A stretch of 64,000 bases of DNA from a phage. Numbering within the stretch: the stretch's first letter is position 1; each line of letters opens with the position of its first letter. Location: sequence record PZ534511.1. One strand, given 5' to 3'. The translations under genes and the position numbers were made by a program. Shown piece after piece: positions 325-21,353 of the stretch. The notes below the pieces were generated by a model that was given only the letters and a program-made list of their open reading frames with translations, did not search any database and had not been told where the DNA came from.

Positions 325-504
325 TTAACGATAATCATCGTACGCTTTATTAACCTGGCGAATATAACATTCAAAAGCCAGATCAATAGATTTATATTCA
401 CGGATATACTCACCATAGGAAACCACATACATTTCTATAGCTTCCTCATATGCGAGGAGAATAGAATCCAAGCCTACGATCTCAGTCTTTGCAATAATAG
501 CCAT
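325..504 (-). CDS. hypothetical small protein (~59 aa)
   Basis: Minus-strand ORF below the 60 aa track cutoff, found by manual translation (MAIIAKTEIVGLDSILLAYEEAIEMYVVSY...); co-directional with neighbours. Confidence 0.3.
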   Translation of the reverse strand: MAIIAKTEIVGLDSILLAYEEAIEMYVVSYGEYIREYKSIDLAFECYIRQVNKAYDDYR

Positions 505-689
505 GATTTTTATCCTCTTTGTGGTTGGTGGGGCTTGCCCCTTTGATTTATATACTACAGTCTTATATGGTCATGTCAACTATTTTCAAAAAATTTTTCT
601 GCTGTGATATTTTTCCCGGTAGGGTTCGCTACTTTCAAAATTCTATCATGCACCGGACGCCCAAAAGAATAAGCGCCGTACACAGTAAA

Positions 690-881
690 CTAATAATCGC
701 CGTCAGGTTGTACTATTACCGCCGCATAGGGTACGCCTTTTTCGTTATTGCTGACAAAATAGATCACGTTGCCATTAATAGCCTCGGTGCGTTTAATTTG
801 TTCCATCATGATGATTTGCCTCTCTTTATTTTCATAATTGGGGGCCTTTTCGGCCCCGCCAGGTTTATTTGTTGATAGCAT
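690..881 (-). CDS. hypothetical small protein (likely starts at internal ATGATG near 806)
   Basis: Track ORF; internal Met pair preceded by AGAGAGG RBS; the upstream part overlaps a GGGGCC..GGCCCC hairpin. Confidence 0.3.
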   Translation of the reverse strand: MLSTNKPGGAEKAPNYENKERQIIMMEQIKRTEAINGNVIYFVSNNEKGVPYAAVIVQPDGDY

Positions 882-1149
882 GCAGCGGGAAAGGTACGCC
901 AGGTTGATAGATAACTTTTACAACCTCATCAGGACAAAAGAAGTTGCAGAACTCACCGCAATAGGCCTCATCCTCTTTTAGCTCTTCATCGACATACTCA
1001 AAAAAGTAGTCGATGCTTGGATAATCCTGACCGGGATTATAGTCAACCATTGTCAGGACTAGTTCAAGATCGTTGCGTAGGATATGCATACCCGCTTTTA
1101 AGTATTTTGCTTCCATTTCTACTACATCGCCAACGGTAACAATAGCCAT
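865..1149 (-). CDS. hypothetical acidic early protein
   Basis: Track ORF 94 aa; RBS ATAGGAG upstream; promoter-like TTGCAT..GATAAT plus 5'-UTR hairpin upstream. Confidence 0.5.
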   Translation of the reverse strand: MAIVTVGDVVEMEAKYLKAGMHILRNDLELVLTMVDYNPGQDYPSIDYFFEYVDEELKEDEAYCGEFCNFFCPDEVVKVIYQPGVPFPLHAINK

Positions 1150-1374
1150 GGTTTTAACTCCTATCTATCCGGTTAATGATTGGGGGCCGCCCCCCTGACA
1201 CGTCCTATTATCCATATTGTAGGGCTTGATGCAAGTACTTCTTTAAAAATTTTTTAAGCGCCTTGGGGGCCGCTGTAGCGCCAAAATAATAAAGGCCATG
1301 CAACCGCATAGCCTTTATGTGATTATATCGCTGCAGGCCCTGCCATGGGCCTTATTTTGCATCATTTGCTGGAA

Positions 1375-1695
1375 TTATTCAGAGAAAACATCGTTCACAA
1401 TAGCGATCACAATGCCGCCCACCTTGTCACGGTCAACAATGCACAAATCACCATAGATCATGTGGTAGTCTGGATGATCTTTCACGGAATAGTCAATGAG
1501 TGTCTTCTTATCGTCCAGCTTTTTGACTTCCATGGTCATTGTAATGAATTGATCGTTAAATGCACTATTGCGGAAGATCATTACCTGGCCGCCTTGACAT
1601 CCAGTGATCTCAACTTCCACGCCGTCTACGATCTGACCATCAAAGAAATAAAGATTATTGGCGGGTATAAACATGATCATTGCTCCTTTTTGCAC
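1375..1695 (-). CDS. hypothetical protein
   Basis: Track ORF 106 aa; RBS AAAGGAG before ATG; preceded by a copy of the 45 bp promoter-hairpin repeat. Confidence 0.5.
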   Translation of the reverse strand: MQKGAMIMFIPANNLYFFDGQIVDGVEVEITGCQGGQVMIFRNSAFNDQFITMTMEVKKLDDKKTLIDYSVKDHPDYHMIYGDLCIVDRDKVGGIVIAIVNDVFSE

Positions 1696-1718
1696 TGATT
1701 ATTTTAACAGGGTTTAAA

Positions 1719-1763
1719 TTTACTTTATTGATGGTCCTGGAGTCAAGACCATCTAAAAATAAA
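1719..1763 (-). repeat. 45 bp intergenic promoter-hairpin repeat, copy 1 (GATGGTC..GACCATC variant)
   Basis: Near-identical to copies at 5426-5470 and 6059-6103; contains TTGACT -35-like element and TAAAYT -10-like element on the minus strand; stem carries a compensatory C>T / G>A change. Confidence 0.7.
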
Positions 1764-1765
1764 TT

Positions 1766-2035
1766 TTACAGGCCTACAATCTCTTTGATTCGTTTAACTG
1801 CTGCCTCAGCGCCTTGGGGGTAGAAATTATGATAACCAATCACGCGGGTAATACTGATCGCCACCTGATGATCTTCATAATACCCCTTGAATATTTCTTG
1901 ACCATCAACCAGCACAGCAATTTTTTCTTCTTTTTTGAAGTTAATAACGCGGATATTGTTGCTCATTTTGTTTCTCCTTTTGGAACTTTGTCTATGTGGT
2001 GGGGGAGTGTCTCCCCGTTGATTGTTATTATCCAT
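1766..2035 (-). CDS. hypothetical protein (probable start at internal Met near 1966, MSNNIRVINF...)
   Basis: Track ORF; internal ATG preceded by AAAAGGAGAAAC RBS; promoter TTGCAA-16-GATAAT and GGGGAG..CTCCCC UTR hairpin upstream. Confidence 0.5.
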   Translation of the reverse strand: MDNNNQRGDTPPPHRQSSKRRNKMSNNIRVINFKKEEKIAVLVDGQEIFKGYYEDHQVAISITRVIGYHNFYPQGAEAAVKRIKEIVGL

Positions 2036-3320: not shown

Positions 3321-3348
3321 AATATAGCAGGTTTTTAGGTTATTGCAA
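3321..3348 (-). promoter_or_regulatory. sigma70-like promoter (TTGCAA-16-TATATT) followed by GGGGGCAA..TTGCCCCC 5'-UTR hairpin
   Basis: Hexamers and spacing read directly on the minus strand upstream of the 2886..3266 gene. Confidence 0.5.
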
Positions 3349-3356
3349 CACTTTAT

Positions 3357-3980
3357 TTATGAAAAAGTCATCTCGCCATCTTCATCCACATCAAACCGCC
3401 AATCATTGGCCTCGATAAGGCCGATCAGGTTTTCGGTAGTGAATTGTTCAAGATAGGCCCCCTCCAGGTCTACGTAAACCTTGCGGGATAGCTCCCGTAC
3501 CGTCTCGGTGATCAGCTCTTCCAGGTCTTCCACTTTGTTTTCTTGTTTGGCGGTCAGATCTAGCCAGGTGGTATCAATGTATCCGCTTACAGTGTTTTCA
3601 TGGCTGTAATGGCTGTACTTGTCGCGTTCAACACTGGCTGATAACTCGCCATCGTGCATTGTGCCGAACAAGTGACGAATTGATCGGAACTTGGTCAGGG
3701 CCTTTACTTTACGCAAAAATTTTTCTAAATCCACGTTTTCAGCACTGATTGAAGCGCCGTCACCCTGGCACCAAAAGCCGGACCAATGTACTTCGGTATC
3801 TTCAAGGCCGTACTCTGGAAAGATATATTCTTTGTAGTGTTCAATTACACTTTCTGCAAAAAAGTCATCCCCGCTGTGTTCTTCTCTTTCGCGTACCATT
3901 TCAATGGCTTTTTCTTTTTGTTCGTCGGTCAGCACGTCGAAAGATAAATTGTAACCTGTGGTAATGTTAACGGTGGTCAT
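3357..3980 (-). CDS. hypothetical acidic early protein (207 aa)
   Basis: Track ORF; strong RBS AACAGGAGAAAATATC; highly acidic; preceded by promoter TTGACA-16-TATACT. Confidence 0.6.
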   Translation of the reverse strand: MTTVNITTGYNLSFDVLTDEQKEKAIEMVREREEHSGDDFFAESVIEHYKEYIFPEYGLEDTEVHWSGFWCQGDGASISAENVDLEKFLRKVKALTKFRSIRHLFGTMHDGELSASVERDKYSHYSHENTVSGYIDTTWLDLTAKQENKVEDLEELITETVRELSRKVYVDLEGAYLEQFTTENLIGLIEANDWRFDVDEDGEMTFS

Positions 3981-16671: not shown

Positions 16672-17042
16672 TGATCGGTCTCCTTCTTGTTAAGTCTGAA
16701 TACTGCAATAATAGCATTCCCAAGGTGCAGTGTCAAATCATTTCCAAGATACCACAACATTCCACGGTCATCTTTAATGAAAGGGTAACAATCTGGTGCC
16801 TTCCAGACATTGTACACTTTCCCAACCTGAAAGAAATCAGGCCCTGTTGGGATTTTGGTGCCAGGCCACACTTGAGATACCTGAACACACTCCACCTGCA
16901 TAATAACAGGAATAGTCATGGATGTAAATGTTTTTGTTGGTTCTACTACCATAAAAGTCTCCTCTTTGCTCAACAACACTTCCATGTGTTGATAGTTTAC
17001 ATTAGTGACAATCACCCCAATTACGACCACACAAGTATTCAC
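16668..17042 (-). CDS. hypothetical protein, paralogue family B
   Basis: C-terminal half matches family B; overlaps the end of DNA polymerase exon 2. Confidence 0.45.
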   Translation of the reverse strand: MNTCVVVIGVIVTNVNYQHMEVLLSKEETFMVVEPTKTFTSMTIPVIMQVECVQVSQVWPGTKIPTGPDFFQVGKVYNVWKAPDCYPFIKDDRGMLWYLGNDLTLHLGNAIIAVFRLNKKETDQ

Positions 17043-17355
17043 CTGTGATCTGGAACGGGACTCCCATCATTTTAGAAGCTTGCCAGAAGCAATGCACCAC
17101 CATTTCACCCACAGGGCTCCAGATAAGTTCAAGCTTTCCGTCATCGTTCAGGATAGGATCGTACACCGTGTTTCCGTCTCTGTCAACCACTTCGTTTCCG
17201 TCCTCATCCTTGCGTGCCTTTTTGTACTTATGACCGTCGAACACATGAAGTTTGGCTTCCTGCTCTGCCTTAAATGCTTCCAATTCTTCAATTGTGTCGA
17301 AGGTGTACACAGTCTTATACTTAGGCGTGTCAGGGACCTGAAGTTGGTACTCATC
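17002..17355 (-). CDS. DNA polymerase (family A), exon 2 (C-terminal part carrying the DE of motif C)
   Basis: Begins GAU GAG (DEYQLQV...), which joined to exon 1 ...YYH gives HDEYQLQV, matching T7 gp5 motif C VHDEIQV; C-terminus GRNWGDCH matches T7 gp5 GPNWAICH. Confidence 0.75.
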   Translation of the reverse strand, partial: DEYQLQVPDTPKYKTVYTFDTIEELEAFKAEQEAKLHVFDGHKYKKARKDEDGNEVVDRDGNTVYDPILNDDGKLELIWSPVGEMVVHCFWQASKMMGVPFQITGEYLCGRNWGDCH

Positions 17356-18198
17356 CATCTGTTCAGGTAGGTCGTTAAGCTACCCCGCACCATTACGTGC
17401 ATAGCCATACAGTTTCCTGTATGGATCGGACTACCTCACTGCCTTGGTAACAAGGCACCTCCCATTTCGACCGCACTTGCTGGCCTACTCTACTCGCTTC
17501 TTCACACCAACCTGTGTTGGAGCTATGCTTTCGATAGTCTCTGAACGTTACTACCAGGTGTAGTTTTTAGAGATATGTTTCCACTGTCTTCTTTGCTTTA
17601 TAGCCCTGACGGTCTCATAAGGATATCCAAGATCCCTAATCTCGCATTGTCGTAGACCACTCTGCAACAGTTCGCAAATCTCTATTACCTCATCTTCTGT
17701 CAGCACAGCGTTGGCATTATACTCACCAACTGGCCTTACTCTGAGGTCATTATCATAGGCGTGCTTGATATTTCCACCAGGGGTGGTCCATTCCAGGTTC
17801 CAGTATGCATTGTTGTACTTATTCCCATCCTTATGGTTCACCCATGTGAGCCTTTCAGGATCCGGGTTTGATACAAAGCATTCAGCAACCAGGTGGTGGA
17901 CACCTTTTGTGCACTGCTTCCCCTCGATTAGCATGGTTACGCAAAGGTAACCTCTACCATTATCAAAACAAAACATTGTTGTATGATCACGTTTCGATAA
18001 AGGTATTGTTCCATCATCAAACACGGTATACCCGTGATAATCAGCTGTTCTAGCCATTTTAACTACACCCCTTTAGTCTTCGCTGCGGATTAGCATATTG
18101 AGCTTTTACCATACTCAGGTGTAAAAGTCAACTTAGCTTTCCCGTCAATTAAAGAGGTTATTCGACATAGATCACTCTATGAAGCCACAATGTTATTT
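17356..18198 (-). mobile_element. group I self-splicing intron interrupting the DNA polymerase gene, with HNH homing endonuclease ORF in the P6 region
   Basis: Minus-strand RNA carries conserved elements P (AAUUGACGGGAAAG, 18137-18150), Q (AAUCCGCAGC, 18082-18091), R (GUUCAGAGACUA, 17535-17546), S (UAGUCC, 17428-17433), and a P9-like hairpin with GAAA loop (17406-17424); 5' exon ends in U, with GUGG available as guide sequence; intron ends in G. Confidence 0.75.
17551..18057 (-). CDS. HNH homing endonuclease (intron-encoded)
   Basis: Motif WVNHKDGNKYNNAYWNLEW (HNH core); C-terminal helix-turn-helix-like region; lies between intron elements Q and R. Confidence 0.8.
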   Translation of the reverse strand: MARTADYHGYTVFDDGTIPLSKRDHTTMFCFDNGRGYLCVTMLIEGKQCTKGVHHLVAECFVSNPDPERLTWVNHKDGNKYNNAYWNLEWTTPGGNIKHAYDNDLRVRPVGEYNANAVLTEDEVIEICELLQSGLRQCEIRDLGYPYETVRAIKQRRQWKHISKNYTW

Positions 18199-20622
18199 AT
18201 GGTAATAGATAATACGACGGACACCTTCATCGTACCACCCACGCTTCACCATTTGGTGGTGCATGAGTATCCCAACTAAGTCACACAGCGATGCACCACC
18301 ATTCTGTTGGTATGCATTAAGTAAAGAGTGTTTAGATCGGGTCCAGATAGCATGACCATCAAAAGAGTAGATAAACTTCTTACCCGTTGCTTCCCAGAAT
18401 TTCTCCAGATCCTCTTTACGCCCCTTAAGACCAGGGTTGGCATCCCAAAGTGCATCGATTACCCTTTGTCCCAACTCTGGAGAGATGTCCAGCATATCTG
18501 CAACTTTATCTTTTTGTGCCCCGTACATAACCCCATACGTGATAGGTTTACCGTCGTTACGAGACACCTCTCTGCCTGCTACTTTTGTATATGCCTCAGC
18601 ATTGTTTTGGTGTGCGTCCCCGTTACTTACAACATCATAATACAAGCCGTTGTCGAACTCAAAGGCACCCCAAGCCCCGATAAGCTGCTCTAAGTTGGAC
18701 CCGTCAATACCGATCTGAAAGTATCCAGGAGGAACACCCCACAGACTACGCATCTCTTTACCCATAACCACTTTAGGAGATGGTTTAGGCATGTTTGCAC
18801 AAATACTGTGTTTCTGTCGTGAAGTGTTTGTTAACCCAGAACTTTTAGCAGGAAGCTTATGGTCAATCTTCAAACGTGGGTGATTAAGAAGACCAGTATC
18901 AACCTTATCCTCCTTGATTGGATCAAGGACCGATCTGCGGTTTCGCAATGATAACCACAAGACGATATCTTTAGCCATCTCTCCGTTCAATTTTTCAAGA
19001 TTCGGGCATAGGTGTCCAAACGTATCTTTCAGTTGCGGAGAAGTAATAAGTGCCCTAGCTTTTCTACGTATTTTCCCGAATACTTCCTTTTTAATCCTTT
19101 CGGAGTTAGGAAAGCTTCGGAACTTGTGCACGGTTGTCTGGAACTTAGCATCAGTTTTGTTCCAGAAGTTGATAATCAGGTCACAATACTCTGACTCTAA
19201 AAGCTCGTCCATATATGCATATACTCGTGCATCAACATCTGCATCAGGTAGAGCTTTCTTCTTGCTGTCTTTAGTTACATCCTTAGTTCTCCACATTGTC
19301 GGAAGCCAACCAGCACTGATCAGGTATCGCTTAATGTCGTCCTGGTTGCTGATTTTCATAGGTATCTTGCAGTCCGGCATTCGCTTCTGCTGTAGATCAC
19401 TTATTGCCTGATCCATTAGCTCTTTAGGTAAAGGTTGTGGTGTGGAGGTGCCCTTAATATAGCCTCTCAAGAAATCAGCCATCTTATCGGGGTCTTTGCA
19501 GCCCATCTCTTCACACCATTTTATCCCTATCTTACTGACATCTCCTGTAGAGGTAAATGCTCGCTTAGGTGGGGCTTTGAACTCTAAAGCGCTCATGTCT
19601 ACAGGGTAGCCAAGCTTATCTTTTAACCATTTCCAGCCATTATTGGAAATTGTCCCATCTTGGTTGAACGGCTTTTCAGGGAATTTAGGCCGCTGAGATA
19701 TTGATAACTCTTTTAAAGGAAGTTGAGGTTCAACACGATCAGCGATCTCTTTCATCCACGCATCACAGCGGTCACGTAAAGCAATAGCCCCGTCTATGTC
19801 GAAATACACACCCTGACGGGCCTGCAGCTCCATCAGGAAGTGCTGCAGCATGCCTCGGCGTAATGCGTTCTTCCAGGTGATCTTCTTGAACCCTTTCGGC
19901 TTCTCTTTGGCAGGATCGTACATAAAGTTCTGCATGTCAGATTTGCCGTAGAATACACCTTTTGATTCCGCTACCAGCTCTTTCCAGAGCAGCTCCTGGA
20001 TGATAACGTCCTCGAATACACGATCCACATACTTCCACAACGGAAGATCGCGCCAGTCATCAATTTGAACTTTCTGGTTACCAAGGGCGTAGCCCCATGC
20101 CATAAGGCCGTGAGGACCAACAGGCTGCATTTTCTTAGTAACCGGGTTGAATACAGAGTCCGGACAACCTTTTGGTAAAGGGCGATCAGGCCACAAAATT
20201 CGACTCATCGCCAACGTATCAAACAGGTTAACCTGGTGGTCGTTGATAGTCCCCATGCATTTAGGATCACGGAACATATCAAAATGAATACCGGATAATC
20301 TTTCCATCAGCATAAAGTCATAACTGTAGCAGTTATGGCAGTTCAAAGCTGTTGGTGACCAGTCGGAATTGCCTGTAAGCCAACCTTCCAACTCCGAAAA
20401 ATCTGCTATGCGAACTTCAAAATCTTTATAAAGAGTTTTCTTTGCCAGAATGAAGTTCTTGGCCTTTTCTATATCCTCCTCGGAGTAGTGTGTGCGGTCA
20501 TTTAGAGGAAGGAACAGCATAAAACGGTTCTTATTCAGCTCTTTAAACAGACCGCAGTGATAATAAAGATCTGGGTCTTCCAAAAGCCCAGAGGCCTCCA
20601 GATCGAAGCACCAATTACTCAT
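18199..20622 (-). CDS. DNA polymerase (family A, T7 gp5-like), exon 1 with 3'-5' exonuclease and polymerase motifs A/B
   Basis: N-terminal FDLEASGL (Exo I, DxE); motif B RNDGKPITYGVMYGAQ; ORF stops 2 codons after ...YYH, before motif C, which is supplied by exon 2. Confidence 0.8.
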
Positions 20623-21353
20623 ACTGTCCCCTCCTGTTTCTTCTCAGCATTCTTTCTTGCAGCTATTGCATCGTCCCTATTCTTGAAATACCCAAGGCAT
20701 TTCCTTTTACCATCTACATAAATTCTGGCTACCCATCTTTCATGGGTTTTATCCCAATTCACCCCTGAGCAACCGCTGGTATTATTATACTGCACGGCTC
20801 TTCCACTCTTGTGCGAAAAACCATTATCTTCGAAGAACTTTCTTGCCCACTCTGCCTCTTCAAAAGTTCTGTACTGGCCTAGCCAGACCCTTTCCCCTAC
20901 AGAGTCTGTGCCTTGAGCTATCCATGCATCTCTTTCTTCAGAATAGTGCACCCCGACCCTGCCAGATTTGTTGTTGCTACGAGGTATCTTGCAACTTTTC
21001 TTTTTGTTATCTGTGGGCTCGAGTAGTTGCAAATTTTGAATACTGTTATCAGCCACACCACCTGTTTCCCTTATCTCCTTGATGTGGTCAACCTCATACC
21101 CTTCCGGTACAGGGCCGTTAAACATTTCCCAGATTATGACGTGGGCACCTTTAGTGCAATGCTTTCCTAGACTAACTACAGGCCTGCCATCAGCATCTTG
21201 CCCCTTGTCAGCTCTGGAGCCTGCTGAAGTTTTAACATATCCTACACCGCTACCTGCCAGAATGTCTATCTTCCAAAAAAGATTTTGACCGTCATACTCC
21301 AGTATCTCTGACCACAGGTGGTTGGCTACACAGTGGTCTCTGAACTCGTTCAT
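20619..21353 (-). CDS. HNH endonuclease with C-terminal AP2 DNA-binding domain (free-standing homing endonuclease)
   Basis: HNH core GYEVDHIKEI..NSIQNLQLL; C-terminal AP2-like segment VGVHYSEERDAWIAQ..WLGQYRTFEEAEWARKF; 4 nt overlap with the polymerase start. Confidence 0.75.
   Translation of the reverse strand: MNEFRDHCVANHLWSEILEYDGQNLFWKIDILAGSGVGYVKTSAGSRADKGQDADGRPVVSLGKHCTKGAHVIIWEMFNGPVPEGYEVDHIKEIRETGGVADNSIQNLQLLEPTDNKKKSCKIPRSNNKSGRVGVHYSEERDAWIAQGTDSVGERVWLGQYRTFEEAEWARKFFEDNGFSHKSGRAVQYNNTSGCSGVNWDKTHERWVARIYVDGKRKCLGYFKNRDDAIAARKNAEKKQEGTV

Follow-up and report, generated by a model that had tools for sequence, protein, structure and literature searches.

Organization of the locus

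The window analyzed here is the whole stretch of 64,000 nucleotides of phage DNA (PZ534511.1), and its source is an rV5-like coliphage (Vequintavirus). On the minus strand the gene for a family A DNA polymerase is interrupted by 843 nt within the coding sequence of catalytic motif C, and the interrupting segment contains a reading frame for an HNH protein. We consider it very probable that this segment is a group I intron of subgroup IA2, carrying a homing endonuclease gene and spliced from the polymerase pre-mRNA. The components, all on the minus strand, are as follows.

20622..18199, minus: exon 1 of the DNA polymerase (family A), from the list of open reading frames; 808 codons, ending ...IIYYH, with CAU at 18201..18199
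18198..17356, minus: group I intron (predicted IA2 type), 843 nt; 5′ end AAAUAACAUUGUGG, 3′ end ...CAGAUG, terminal G at 17356; borders from intron-less alleles, with RF00028 and covariation
18202..18185, minus: P1; exon CCAU and intron AA (18202..18197) with the internal guide UUGUGG (18190..18185)
18181..18166, minus: P2 hairpin, CAUAGA-GUGA-UCUAUG with a GNRA loop; compensatory changes in 6/6 pairs
18157..18084, minus: P3 5′ strand (18157..18152) and the P4–P5–P5a/b domain, from the Rfam alignment; three compensatory pairs in P3
18148..18141, minus: UUGACGGG, part of the P element AAUUGACGGGAAAG, with a bulged A
about 18091..18082, minus: Q element AAUCCGCAGC; UCCGCA at 18089..18084
18083..18063, minus: 5′ strands of P6 (GCG) and P6a (ACUA), and GGUGUAG; duplex with 17563..17545
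18057..17551, minus: putative homing endonuclease gene of the HNH type, I-HmuI-like, 168 aa, in the P6a loop between Q and R
17563..17545, minus: 3′ strands of P6b (CUACACC), P6a (UAGU, which holds the HNH stop codon UAG) and P6 (CGU)
17546..17535, minus: R element GUUCAGAGACUA; J6/7 and the P7 5′ strand GACUA
17534..17469, minus: P7.1 (extended hairpin), GUA linker and P7.2 (GGCC...GGUC), between P7 and the P3 3′ strand
17463..17458, minus: P3 3′ strand, GGGAGG
17456..17441, minus: P8 hairpin, GCCUUG-UUAC-CAAGGC; 5/6 pairs compensatory
17433..17428, minus: S element UAGUCC, after J8/7; P7 3′ strand UAGUC at 17433..17429
17424..17405, minus: P9 hairpin, CCAUACAG-GAAA-CUGUAUGG
17424..17357, minus: P9, P9.1, P9.2 and the 3′ tail leading to the terminal G; compensatory pairs four in P9, two in P9.1, three in P9.2
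17355..17002, minus: exon 2 of the DNA polymerase, 117 codons and a stop; starts GAU GAG (Asp-Glu of motif C, DEYQ...), ends GRNWGDCH

The exon junction

Exon 1 gives a Pfam DNA_pol_A match. A preliminary description of this DNA had the polymerase reading frame stopping two codons beyond ...YYH, before the HDE of motif C, and a downstream frame running from GAU GAG to GRNWGDCH. The list of open reading frames agrees: the frame 20622..18193 has the C-terminus ...IIYYH-K-stop (CAU|AAA UAA), and the frame that holds exon 2 (17358..17002) opens with AUG|GAU GAG and closes with GRNWGDCH. The last 59 residues of exon 1 are 100% identical to the polymerase of the intron-less phage slur16. Joining the two exons gives a protein of 925 aa, which is the same length as the product of the uninterrupted slur16 gene.

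The predicted join is ...UAC CAU|GAU GAG.... Intron-less Vequintavirus genomes encode the spliced 176-aa peptide in a single piece of 528 nt, with identities of 98–100% (slur16, Pr121LW, rV5_ev156, typing phage 4 and others) and 176/176 at best. The DNA of the intron-less alleles aligns with the joined exons without a gap at TACCAT|GAC, so that the ligated junction proposed in the preliminary description is exact. The alignment of the predicted spliced protein with T7 DNA polymerase (gp5) runs straight through the junction (iyyHDEyql vs awvHDEiqv, T7 residues 653–655), which bears out the earlier expectation that splicing would recreate Y-H-D-E-Y-Q-L-Q-V, matching T7 V-H-D-E-I-Q-V. The insertion point lies between T7 His653 and Asp654, inside the catalytic HDE of motif C. 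We take T7 residues 653–655 to be equivalent to E. coli Pol I 881–883, and the insertion thus to be at Pol I position 881 (His881|Asp882). Exon 2 alone matched no T7 chain when compared with the PDB; the verified part of the T7 comparison is the HDE alignment, and the likeness of the exon-2 C-terminus to that of T7 (GPNWAICH) put forward in the preliminary description is a putative one. The predicted spliced polymerase would have a mass of ~105 kDa and contain the junction-spanning peptide ...IIYYHDEYQLQVPDTPK.

The chance that the insert is an intein, or some other element acting at the level of protein, is vanishingly small. Two relatives, JEP1 and Mangalyan, do bear an in-frame intein-like insert of ~323 aa, located elsewhere in the same polymerase gene. 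The insert studied here, however, is out of frame with the polymerase, which meets a stop two codons after the histidine; the HNH reading frame has a start codon of its own, and the RNA fold described below accounts for the whole insert. The reading frame by itself refutes an intein.

The fold of the intron RNA

The preliminary description had identified the P, Q, R and S elements in the order required of a group I intron, a P9-like hairpin with a GAAA loop, a 5′ exon ending in U with GUGG as guide, and a terminal G. All of these are present on the minus strand. The guide UUGUGG pairs with CCAU of the exon and AA of the intron to form P1, yielding a U-G pair at the 5′ splice site, and the P1 loop contains the in-frame stop codon UAA (18195..18193). 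A candidate P10 of 4 bp could form between CAUU (18192..18189) and the start of exon 2, GAUG. This pairing is not conserved in SPA01. We considered that GAU might be needed as the first codon of exon 2 for P10 to form, and rejected this, since SPA01 has GAC and the intron is present, while Pr121LW and ev156 have GAU and the intron is absent. From this pattern GAU is a haplotype marker and not a requirement.

A search with a group I covariance model had been proposed as a check. Rfam RF00028 matches the window copy with 29.4 bits and E = 2.4e-5 in a local search, or 0.0015 over the whole 64-kb window. The RNA match is far beyond chance, but the score is below the Rfam gathering threshold for this family, which is 50 bits, and scanning the whole window at the gathering threshold gave 0 matches. 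The low score probably arises because a cassette of 533 nt with the HNH gene lies in P6a, and the model mis-aligns R. The P6a insertion would explain the lack of a match at gathering, and on that account we do not take it as evidence against an intron. The covariance-model alignment places P1–P6, S and P9, and R falls after the reading frame. Introns at the same site that lack the reading frame exceed the threshold, with scores of 64.7 (rV5), 75.6 (HMD-6), 73.7 (JEP1), 91.2 (TH18) and 77.3 bits (Vibrio K470), and the same-site intron of CR9 scores 56.7 bits with its reading frame retained. The core of HMD-6 is 92.9% identical to that of the window. RF00028 was the sole RNA family found when the 64 kb were scanned at E ≤ 0.05, with no further intron, and a tRNA scan was negative.

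Covariation was examined by applying a hand-drawn P1–P9.2 structure to 14 diverse introns from the same site. Paired positions occupied 98.8% of the cells, compared with 34–41% in controls in which the partner strand was slid. Compensatory changes on both sides were found in 28 of 56 pairs, and none of 500 shuffles reached as high a number. The helices with such support across the 14 introns are P2, P3, P6, P7, P7.2, P8, P9, P9.1 and P9.2. The changes in P6 occur in phiA009, SPA01 and phiTE. The 5′ strand of P7 pairs with 17433..17429, and here one pair changes from U-A to C-G in rV5, GEC_vB_MG and SPA01. P1 is near-invariant (5/6 pairs constant) and consistent with the structure; neither it nor proximal P4 gains support from covariation, since both lack variation. 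An unconstrained minimum free energy fold regains P2, P3, P5a/b, P6/P6a, P8 and P9. The assignment to group I in the preliminary description is thus upheld by the aligned core, by the same-site alleles passing the gathering threshold and by the covariation.

Subgroup IA2 is distinguished by P7.1 and P7.2 lying between the P7 5′ and P3 3′ strands and joined by GUA (PMC3428280). The helix order in the window, P7, P7.1, GUA, P7.2 and the P3 3′ strand, corresponds to this arrangement, and the predicted structure places the intron in IA2. P7.1 (17534..17494) was drawn by eye and is unscored; it is followed by GUA(GA)GUA and P7.2 (17485..17469), which has two compensatory pairs among the 14 introns. 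The pattern is plain in the short forms of rV5 and CR9, that of rV5 being UUCC-GAAA-GGAA GUA GACC...GGUC.

These data bear on a different reading, in which the insert is a dead intron or an endonuclease cassette in a gene that is split without splicing. The products would be exon 1 plus a lysine, and an exon-2 product from the AUG at position 17358, and the two polymerase polypeptides would assemble after translation. Such genes exist; NrdA of the Aeromonas phage Aeh1 is split by mobE. In GenBank records the HNH gene is flanked by two coding sequences, each annotated as DNA polymerase; an AUG (17358..17356) is positioned immediately 5′ of GAU GAG; and HNH insertion without splicing has been described in Aeh1 and in a different gene of CB7 (PMC7344957). 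Yet the AUG comprises the last three bases of the intron and is unconserved, relatives having UUG or GUG in its place. It lacks a preceding Shine-Dalgarno sequence, and the bases immediately 5′ of it are engaged in P9.2. The break would part the histidine from Asp-Glu within one catalytic motif, the 28 compensatory pairs are indicative of strong structural selection on the ribozyme core that a dead insert would not keep, and the same-site intron of CB7 splices (PMC7344957). With an unconserved AUG that lacks a Shine-Dalgarno sequence and with structure so strongly conserved, we rejected a split gene as very improbable.

The HNH gene and its predicted pairing within P6a

The HNH reading frame is in P6a, between Q and R as the preliminary description had it. 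It has its own start codon and is intact, with no frameshifts. The protein matches phrog_59 with E = 1.5e-36. Its best solved relative is I-HmuI (PDB 1U3E, E = 3e-5), with the histidine and two asparagines of the HNH (ββα-metal) motif aligned, NHKDGNKYNNAYWNLEW...GGN corresponding to DHKDGNKDNNLSTNLRW...KIN in I-HmuI. The match to Pfam HNH_3 is weak (E = 0.0028, below the cut-off). An asparagine precedes the catalytic histidine, at the position of Asp74 of I-HmuI, which is a metal ligand in that enzyme. The protein is 98% identical in FV3 and 72% identical in Av-05, and the surrounding intron cores have diverged to ~80–85%. Retention of the reading frame while the cores diverged points to purifying selection.

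The sequence GGUGUAG on the 5′ side of P6a shares bases with AAGGGG, the Shine-Dalgarno-like sequence of the HNH gene, and the ribosome-binding site is predicted to pair with the 3′ end of the same gene, comprising its last codons and stop. The duplex between 18083..18063 and 17563..17545 has a calculated stability of −17.7 kcal/mol (z = −3.8), with compensatory changes relative to Av-05. Pairing of the ribosome-binding site with the end of the gene recurs in seven of nine versions of the intron that have the reading frame, despite their differing sequences (z −3.5 to −7), and is weak in GEC_vB_MG and Csp-D17 (28-nt windows). A scan of the intron for promoters and terminators revealed no promoter 5′ of the HNH gene, nor any terminator, which fits co-transcription with the polymerase.

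Distribution among related phages

The full intron is present in 33 of ~111 related records, and many others have an intron without the reading frame or no intron. Presence and absence are polymorphic among near-identical genomes. Alleles that have lost the reading frame and kept the ribozyme occur in rV5, HMD-6, JEP1, TH18 and K470, and the cores of introns with and without it can be nearly identical (98.4% for FV3 and HMD-6, 96.3% for Av-05 and TH18). Exon 2 of FFH2 is a chimera of the two flank haplotypes, a pattern suggestive of a recent homing event in which the co-conversion tract was very short.

Such losses raise the question of whether the HNH gene is a decaying passenger in a genuine, splicing intron that persists by vertical descent and recombination only. 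The replacement of the I-HmuI aspartate preceding the catalytic histidine and the weak Pfam match are also in keeping with this. Opposed to it are an uninterrupted frame of 168 aa conserved at the levels given above, retention of the catalytic histidine and both asparagines, and the chimeric flank of FFH2. We regard a passenger gene as unlikely, and favor an intron with a homing endonuclease under selection.

A pattern scan of IMG/VR with the exon and the intron start returned only seven loci. A second pattern, from the S/P9 region, was too narrow; it retrieved two loci unrelated to this one, each with another group I intron, and these were dropped. One of them has its intron in a non-polymerase gene of an unrelated phage.

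Proposed mechanism

We propose that transcription of the single family A polymerase gene yields one pre-mRNA including the 843-nt intron, whose RNA would fold into the usual core of P1–P9.2 with P7.1 and P7.2. Free guanosine would be bound and the RNA cut 3′ of the U of ...UACCAU, and the exon end would then be joined to GAUGAG beyond the terminal G. Ligation would restore Tyr-His-Asp-Glu, and return the aspartate and glutamate of motif C to the same polypeptide of 925 aa. On unspliced RNA ribosomes would halt two codons into the intron. Splicing should be needed for a working polymerase, because the unspliced product would lack motif C.

The most likely target of the HNH protein is the polymerase gene of a co-infecting relative that lacks the intron; a nick or cut made close to the YHDE codons would be repaired by copying the intron into that allele (homing). 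With the ribosome-binding site predicted to pair with the last codons and stop of the endonuclease gene, complete folding of the ribozyme should prevent the endonuclease from being translated. Translation of the endonuclease and folding of the ribozyme should exclude each other, and the P6a pairing may in this way have a regulatory role.

We suggest tentatively, as possible rather than probable, a wider reading that combines one wide-ranging intron lineage, a separable endonuclease cassette and a possible benefit to the phage. The lineage would be specialized on ...UAC CAU|GA(U/C) GA... (Tyr-His|Asp-Glu) of family A polymerases, and would have moved among four or more groups of phages: Vequintavirinae (four genera), Pseudomonas Pakpunavirus, Aeromonas Plateaulakevirus and Vibrio phages of ~140 kb. 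The T7-like phages PhiI and W31 may also belong. Gain, loss and exchange of the endonuclease cassette would take place separately from the ribozyme. Every stage of the homing cycle appears to be represented among the more than 100 sequenced Vequintavirus genomes, and the endonuclease might act as a weapon against co-infecting relatives that lack the intron. I-HmuI and I-HmuII provide a precedent in SPO1 and SP82, and the intron endonuclease of PhiPA3 is another (PMC11620839). If this is correct, the element gives a selective benefit and is not purely selfish.

Implications for annotation

The element is of a familiar kind, already reported at the same site, and changes nothing in what is known of group I introns. 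At least 30 GenBank/RefSeq Vequintavirus records list the polymerase as two separate coding sequences, together with the HNH gene. In rV5, the type phage, an intron of 276 nt without a reading frame is unannotated and the polymerase is reported as a truncated protein of 775 aa; the small hypothetical reading frames downstream are really the intron and exon 2. Recognizing the intron gives the correct 925-aa polymerase, which matters for phylogenies and pangenomes that use the polymerase as a marker. Near-identical genomes carry intron-less alleles, introns without the reading frame and introns bearing the endonuclease, and in some relatives the polymerase gene or its immediate surroundings further contain a second intron, an intein-like insert and a free-standing HNH gene. 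The gene thus offers a ready natural setting in which to follow the homing cycle and the competition of co-infecting therapeutic coliphages.

Comparison with known systems

In the T4 td intron with I-TevI, RNA structure limits the translation of the intron endonuclease. Like the intron in the window, as assigned here, td is an IA2 phage intron in a gene of DNA metabolism, with its endonuclease gene in a peripheral loop, a ribosome-binding site occluded by RNA pairing (predicted in our case) and an exon-1 stop near the 5′ splice site. It differs in having a GIY-YIG and not an HNH endonuclease, and in its host gene.

SPO1, SP82 and Bastille also have group I introns in family A polymerase genes, encoding nicking endonucleases with an N-terminal HNH domain (I-HmuI, I-HmuII and I-BasI). 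I-HmuI is the best match of solved structure to the HNH protein here, and phrog_59 is the family named for the endonucleases of Bastillevirinae polymerase introns (PMC11878797). However, these introns are at Pol I site 674, in the fingers, as opposed to 881 (PMC3428280), the hosts are Gram-positive, and protein identity is low, detectable over only ~65 residues.

The introns of the T7-like phages PhiI and W31 (AY769989, AY769990) are reported to lie at Pol I site 881, to be of class IA2 and to have the reading frame in P6a (PMC3428280). As described, they share with our intron a family A polymerase host at the corresponding site (Pol I 881; T7 653|654 here), the IA2 arrangement of P7.1, GUA and P7.2, an HNH gene in P6a, and a ribosome-binding site that is likewise thought to limit endonuclease expression. 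This likeness is one of described site, subgroup and reading frame position; no T7-like genome was among the blastn matches to the window intron. Their phages are T7-like podoviruses, in contrast to the 135–140 kb myovirus (Vequintavirus) here.

The introns of CB7 and phiTE (Pectobacterium phages, Certrevirus) belong to the same subfamily, Vequintavirinae, and have the identical site, YYH|DEY. They differ in encoding another, shorter HNH protein of 127 aa (39% identity over 57 columns), in a rearranged P5 region and a length of 687 nt, and in having a further intron, nearer the 5′ end of the gene, that has no counterpart in the window. They share the 5′ end AA(A/G)UAACAUUGUGGCUU with the window intron and resemble it closely in the half from P7 to P9.2. 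Splicing of the same-site CB7 intron, which holds CB7_50, was demonstrated by RT-PCR and cDNA sequencing (PMC7344957).

The polymerase gene and its insert

Escherichia phage phiWec189 is 99.7% identical to the window region, and around 30 further rV5-like myoviruses (genus Vequintavirus, genomes of 135–140 kb) are 94–99% identical to it. More than 12 records labelled 'Campylobacter phage' (host C. jejuni; MG065635, MG065644, MG065690 and others) match at 95–99.6%; these look like rV5-like coliphages, and the host label is questionable. The split polymerase gene and its intron lie on the minus strand.

Features of the split polymerase gene in the window
20622..18193, minus: family A DNA polymerase ORF (Pfam DNA_pol_A), ending ...IIYYH-K-stop
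18198..17356, minus: group I intron, exactly 843 nt
18057..17551, minus: HNH ORF, 168 aa, between both polymerase ORFs
17358..17002, minus: second polymerase ORF, M-DEYQLQVP...GRNWGDCH

A peptide made by joining the final 59 exon 1 codons to all 117 of exon 2 was used to search phage genomes. This search found the peptide in slur16, Pr121LW, A12a, rV5_ev156, O157 typing phage 4 and ECP26, each time as one uninterrupted 528-nt piece and at 98–100% identity; slur16 DNA reads ...TATTACCAT/GACGAATAT..., gapless at the predicted junction. The joined exons comprise 925 codons, the length of the slur16 polymerase gene. Since insert-free relatives encode the joined peptide in one piece, and slur16 matches the joined exons without a gap and at the same length, the borders of the intron are exact. 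The alignment of the spliced protein with T7 DNA polymerase is unbroken over the junction (iyyHDEyql against awvHDEiqv, T7 653–655), and the insert therefore divides the motif C His from Asp-Glu. The preliminary description had split the polymerase at this motif, and was correct in both observation and interpretation. The frame of exon 1 ends at the second intron codon, which is UAA, or UGA in phiA009; in TH18 alone the stop lies further downstream. A reading of the insert as an intein is ruled out by the reading frame.

Covariation and fold

Introns at the same site (all ...YH/DE...) were gathered from 15 phages, covering Vequintavirus, Avunavirus, Certrevirus and Seunavirus (Vequintavirinae) together with Aeromonas phiA009, Pseudomonas SPA01 and Vibrio K470. 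Fourteen were aligned after the variable P6a/ORF segment had been cut out and an artificial GAAA linker substituted; Csp-D17 was omitted as a near-duplicate of GEC_vB_MG. Helices P1, P2, P3, proximal P4, P6, P7, P7.2, P8, P9, P9.1 and P9.2 were drawn from the window sequence. Standard pairs are found in 98.8% of cells, compared with 34–41% in a control where the 3' partners were slid by 1–3 columns. Half of the pairs (28 of 56) have changed on both sides, and none of 500 shuffles gave pair values as high as those observed. All six pairs of P2 vary with retention of its GNRA loop, and P8, P9 and P9.2 likewise have many compensatory changes. P1 and proximal P4 are invariant in the aligned introns, and are thus uninformative for or against. 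Column-wise scoring was impracticable for distal P4, which has a bulged A or U in some sequences and none in others; by eye its pairing is retained (CGGG/UCCG versus CUGG/UCAG). With the ORF deleted, the intron folds by unconstrained minimum free energy into a structure that includes P2, P3, P5a/b, P6/P6a, P8 and P9. Coordinates assigned to each helix put every element of the preliminary description at its stated position: the four strings P, Q, R and S, the P9 hairpin with its GAAA loop, the guide sequence and the G that ends the intron.

It is unlikely that the polymerase is instead made as separate proteins with no splicing. An AUG does precede exon 2, but it consists of the final three intron bases and is UUG or GUG in relatives; it has no Shine-Dalgarno sequence, and the bases immediately before it are taken up by P9.2 pairing. 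Moreover, a non-functional insert would not retain 28 compensatory pairs.

No Rfam family matched the window at gathering score (50 bits for RF00028, the group I model). A local search aligned RF00028 to 18208..17406 (29.4 bits, E = 2.4e-5); over the whole window E = 0.0015, and this is the sole RNA family match there. The alignment places P1–P6, S and P9, but R is misassigned to GUUAAAAUGGCUA, where the ORF begins, 500 nt short of the true R. The score is low because of this misplacement. As a natural control, ORF-less forms of the intron at the same site in several relatives clear the threshold easily (rV5 64.7, HMD-6 75.6, JEP1 73.7, TH18 91.2 and Vibrio phage K470 77.3 bits), and the CR9 intron, with its ORF present, scores 56.7 bits. 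The HMD-6 and window cores are 92.9% identical. The helix order P7, P7.1, GUA, P7.2, P3' is the IA2 arrangement, following the definition set out in PMC3428280.

The endonuclease and P6a

The best solved relative of the 168-aa protein is I-HmuI (1U3E, E = 3e-5), the nicking enzyme encoded by the polymerase intron of SPO1. The two proteins align at the catalytic His and at two Asn, and the Asp preceding the His is Asn here. That the enzyme is now inactive seems rather improbable. Homologues 46–98% identical occupy the same place in every ORF-bearing version except those of phiTE and CB7, which hold a different, shorter HNH protein. The HNH ORF noted at the outset within the intron is confirmed by a match to phrog_59 'HNH endonuclease' (E = 1.5e-36), the PHROG of the Bastillevirinae polymerase-intron endonucleases as described in PMC11878797. 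We conclude that the insert is a genuine group I intron of subgroup IA2, that it encodes an HNH homing endonuclease of the I-HmuI kind, and that it lies between His and Asp of motif C.

In every ORF-bearing version the stretch directly 3' of Q holds Shine-Dalgarno-like purines, and in GEC_vB_MG the AUG too, and it pairs with the 3' end of the ORF, its stop codon and the codons just before. The window duplex, ACUA...GGGGUGUAGU with ACUACACCUGGUAGU, has a predicted energy of -17.7 kcal/mol. Such duplexes surpass shuffled or other ORF segments in seven of nine cases (z of -3.5 to -7), and in Av-05 synonymous changes of UAC ACC to UAU ACU have their counterpart ahead of the AUG, where GUG has become GUA. 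From the analogy of T4 td and I-TevI, we infer that P6a may have a double role, closing the ribozyme domain and masking the ribosome-binding site, whereby ribozyme folding and endonuclease translation would be mutually exclusive. A scan of the intron found no promoter-like site before the ORF and no terminator.

Mobility

Of about 111 related records, 33 contain 80% or more of the intron (843 nt). In others the intron lacks the ORF and measures 276 nt (rV5 type) or 328 nt (HMD-6 type), and dozens of records are intron-less. ORF-bearing and ORF-less cores are 98.4% identical for FV3 and HMD-6, and 96.3% for Av-05 and TH18, the sole difference being a 533-nt cassette versus a 19–20-nt hairpin between the borders GAAG and AACG. 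Because near-identical cores differ in this way only, the histories of cassette and ribozyme are separable. The exon-2 flanks form two synonymous haplotypes. FFH2, with the intron present, has its first exon-2 codon from one and the remainder from the other, the pattern expected if the co-conversion tract was very short.

Other mobile elements lie in or beside polymerase genes of this group.

Further elements (L numbers are our labels for related records and IMG/VR contigs)
Window 20619..21353, minus: free-standing HNH + AP2-domain endonuclease gene, 244 aa (Pfam HNH_3 5e-12, AP2; phrog_99 1e-51)
TH18 (L004) and Av-05 (L005) 914..1117; GEC_vB_MG (L008) 476..1117; phiTE (L013) 895..1565: second intron, RF00028 47.5–63.8 bits
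L029 875..1116 and 3348..3585; L028 5927..6159: unrelated group I introns

The HNH + AP2 gene lies between the primase/helicase and polymerase genes, its stop overlapping the polymerase start (ATGA). It is present in just 10 of the 118 related phage records, which makes it a second homing-type element beside this gene, polymorphic independently of the intron. The second group I intron, with its own HNH gene, lies ~340 nt upstream in the polymerase gene of several relatives and is absent from the window. JEP1 (L009 1..1183), Mangalyan and VB-EcoM-WM (+969 nt) have an in-frame insertion of ~323 aa in exon 1, at window ~18590 (...GDAHQ/NNAEAY), where the window has none. It ends ...VAVCGN/C, contains two LAGLIDADG-like blocks (LLIAIHDDGHL, FIASLSNWDGW) and resembles an intein that encodes a homing endonuclease. 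A pattern scan of IMG/VR gave the unrelated viral contigs L028 and L029, whose group I introns score strongly (80.8–90.8 bits). The one at L029 875..1116 interrupts a gene other than the polymerase in a phage of low GC content; these introns have only the core S/P9 motif in common with the window intron.

Comparison with known systems

The type phage rV5 itself (DQ832317, L002) carries the unannotated 276-nt version at 1501..1776. Its GenBank record has a truncated polymerase, and hypothetical ORFs 227, 226 and 225 span what are the intron and exon 2; its genome paper mentions introns in the terminase gene only and gives the polymerase as 775 aa (PMC3606486). No description of a Vequintavirus polymerase intron was found in the literature searched. 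The intron is a poorly annotated, newly recognised case of an already known element type, and the value of the finding is modest, being mainly an annotation correction and a natural system for the homing cycle. The CB7 intron holding CB7_50 occupies the identical YYH/DEY site in a phage of the same subfamily, and is reported to splice from RT-PCR with cDNA sequencing (PMC7344957). The introns of the T7-like phages PhiI and W31 (Bonocora & Shub 2004), as summarized in PMC3428280, are IA2 introns at Pol I site 881 with an HNH ORF in P6a; by that published description, they share both site and architecture with the window intron.
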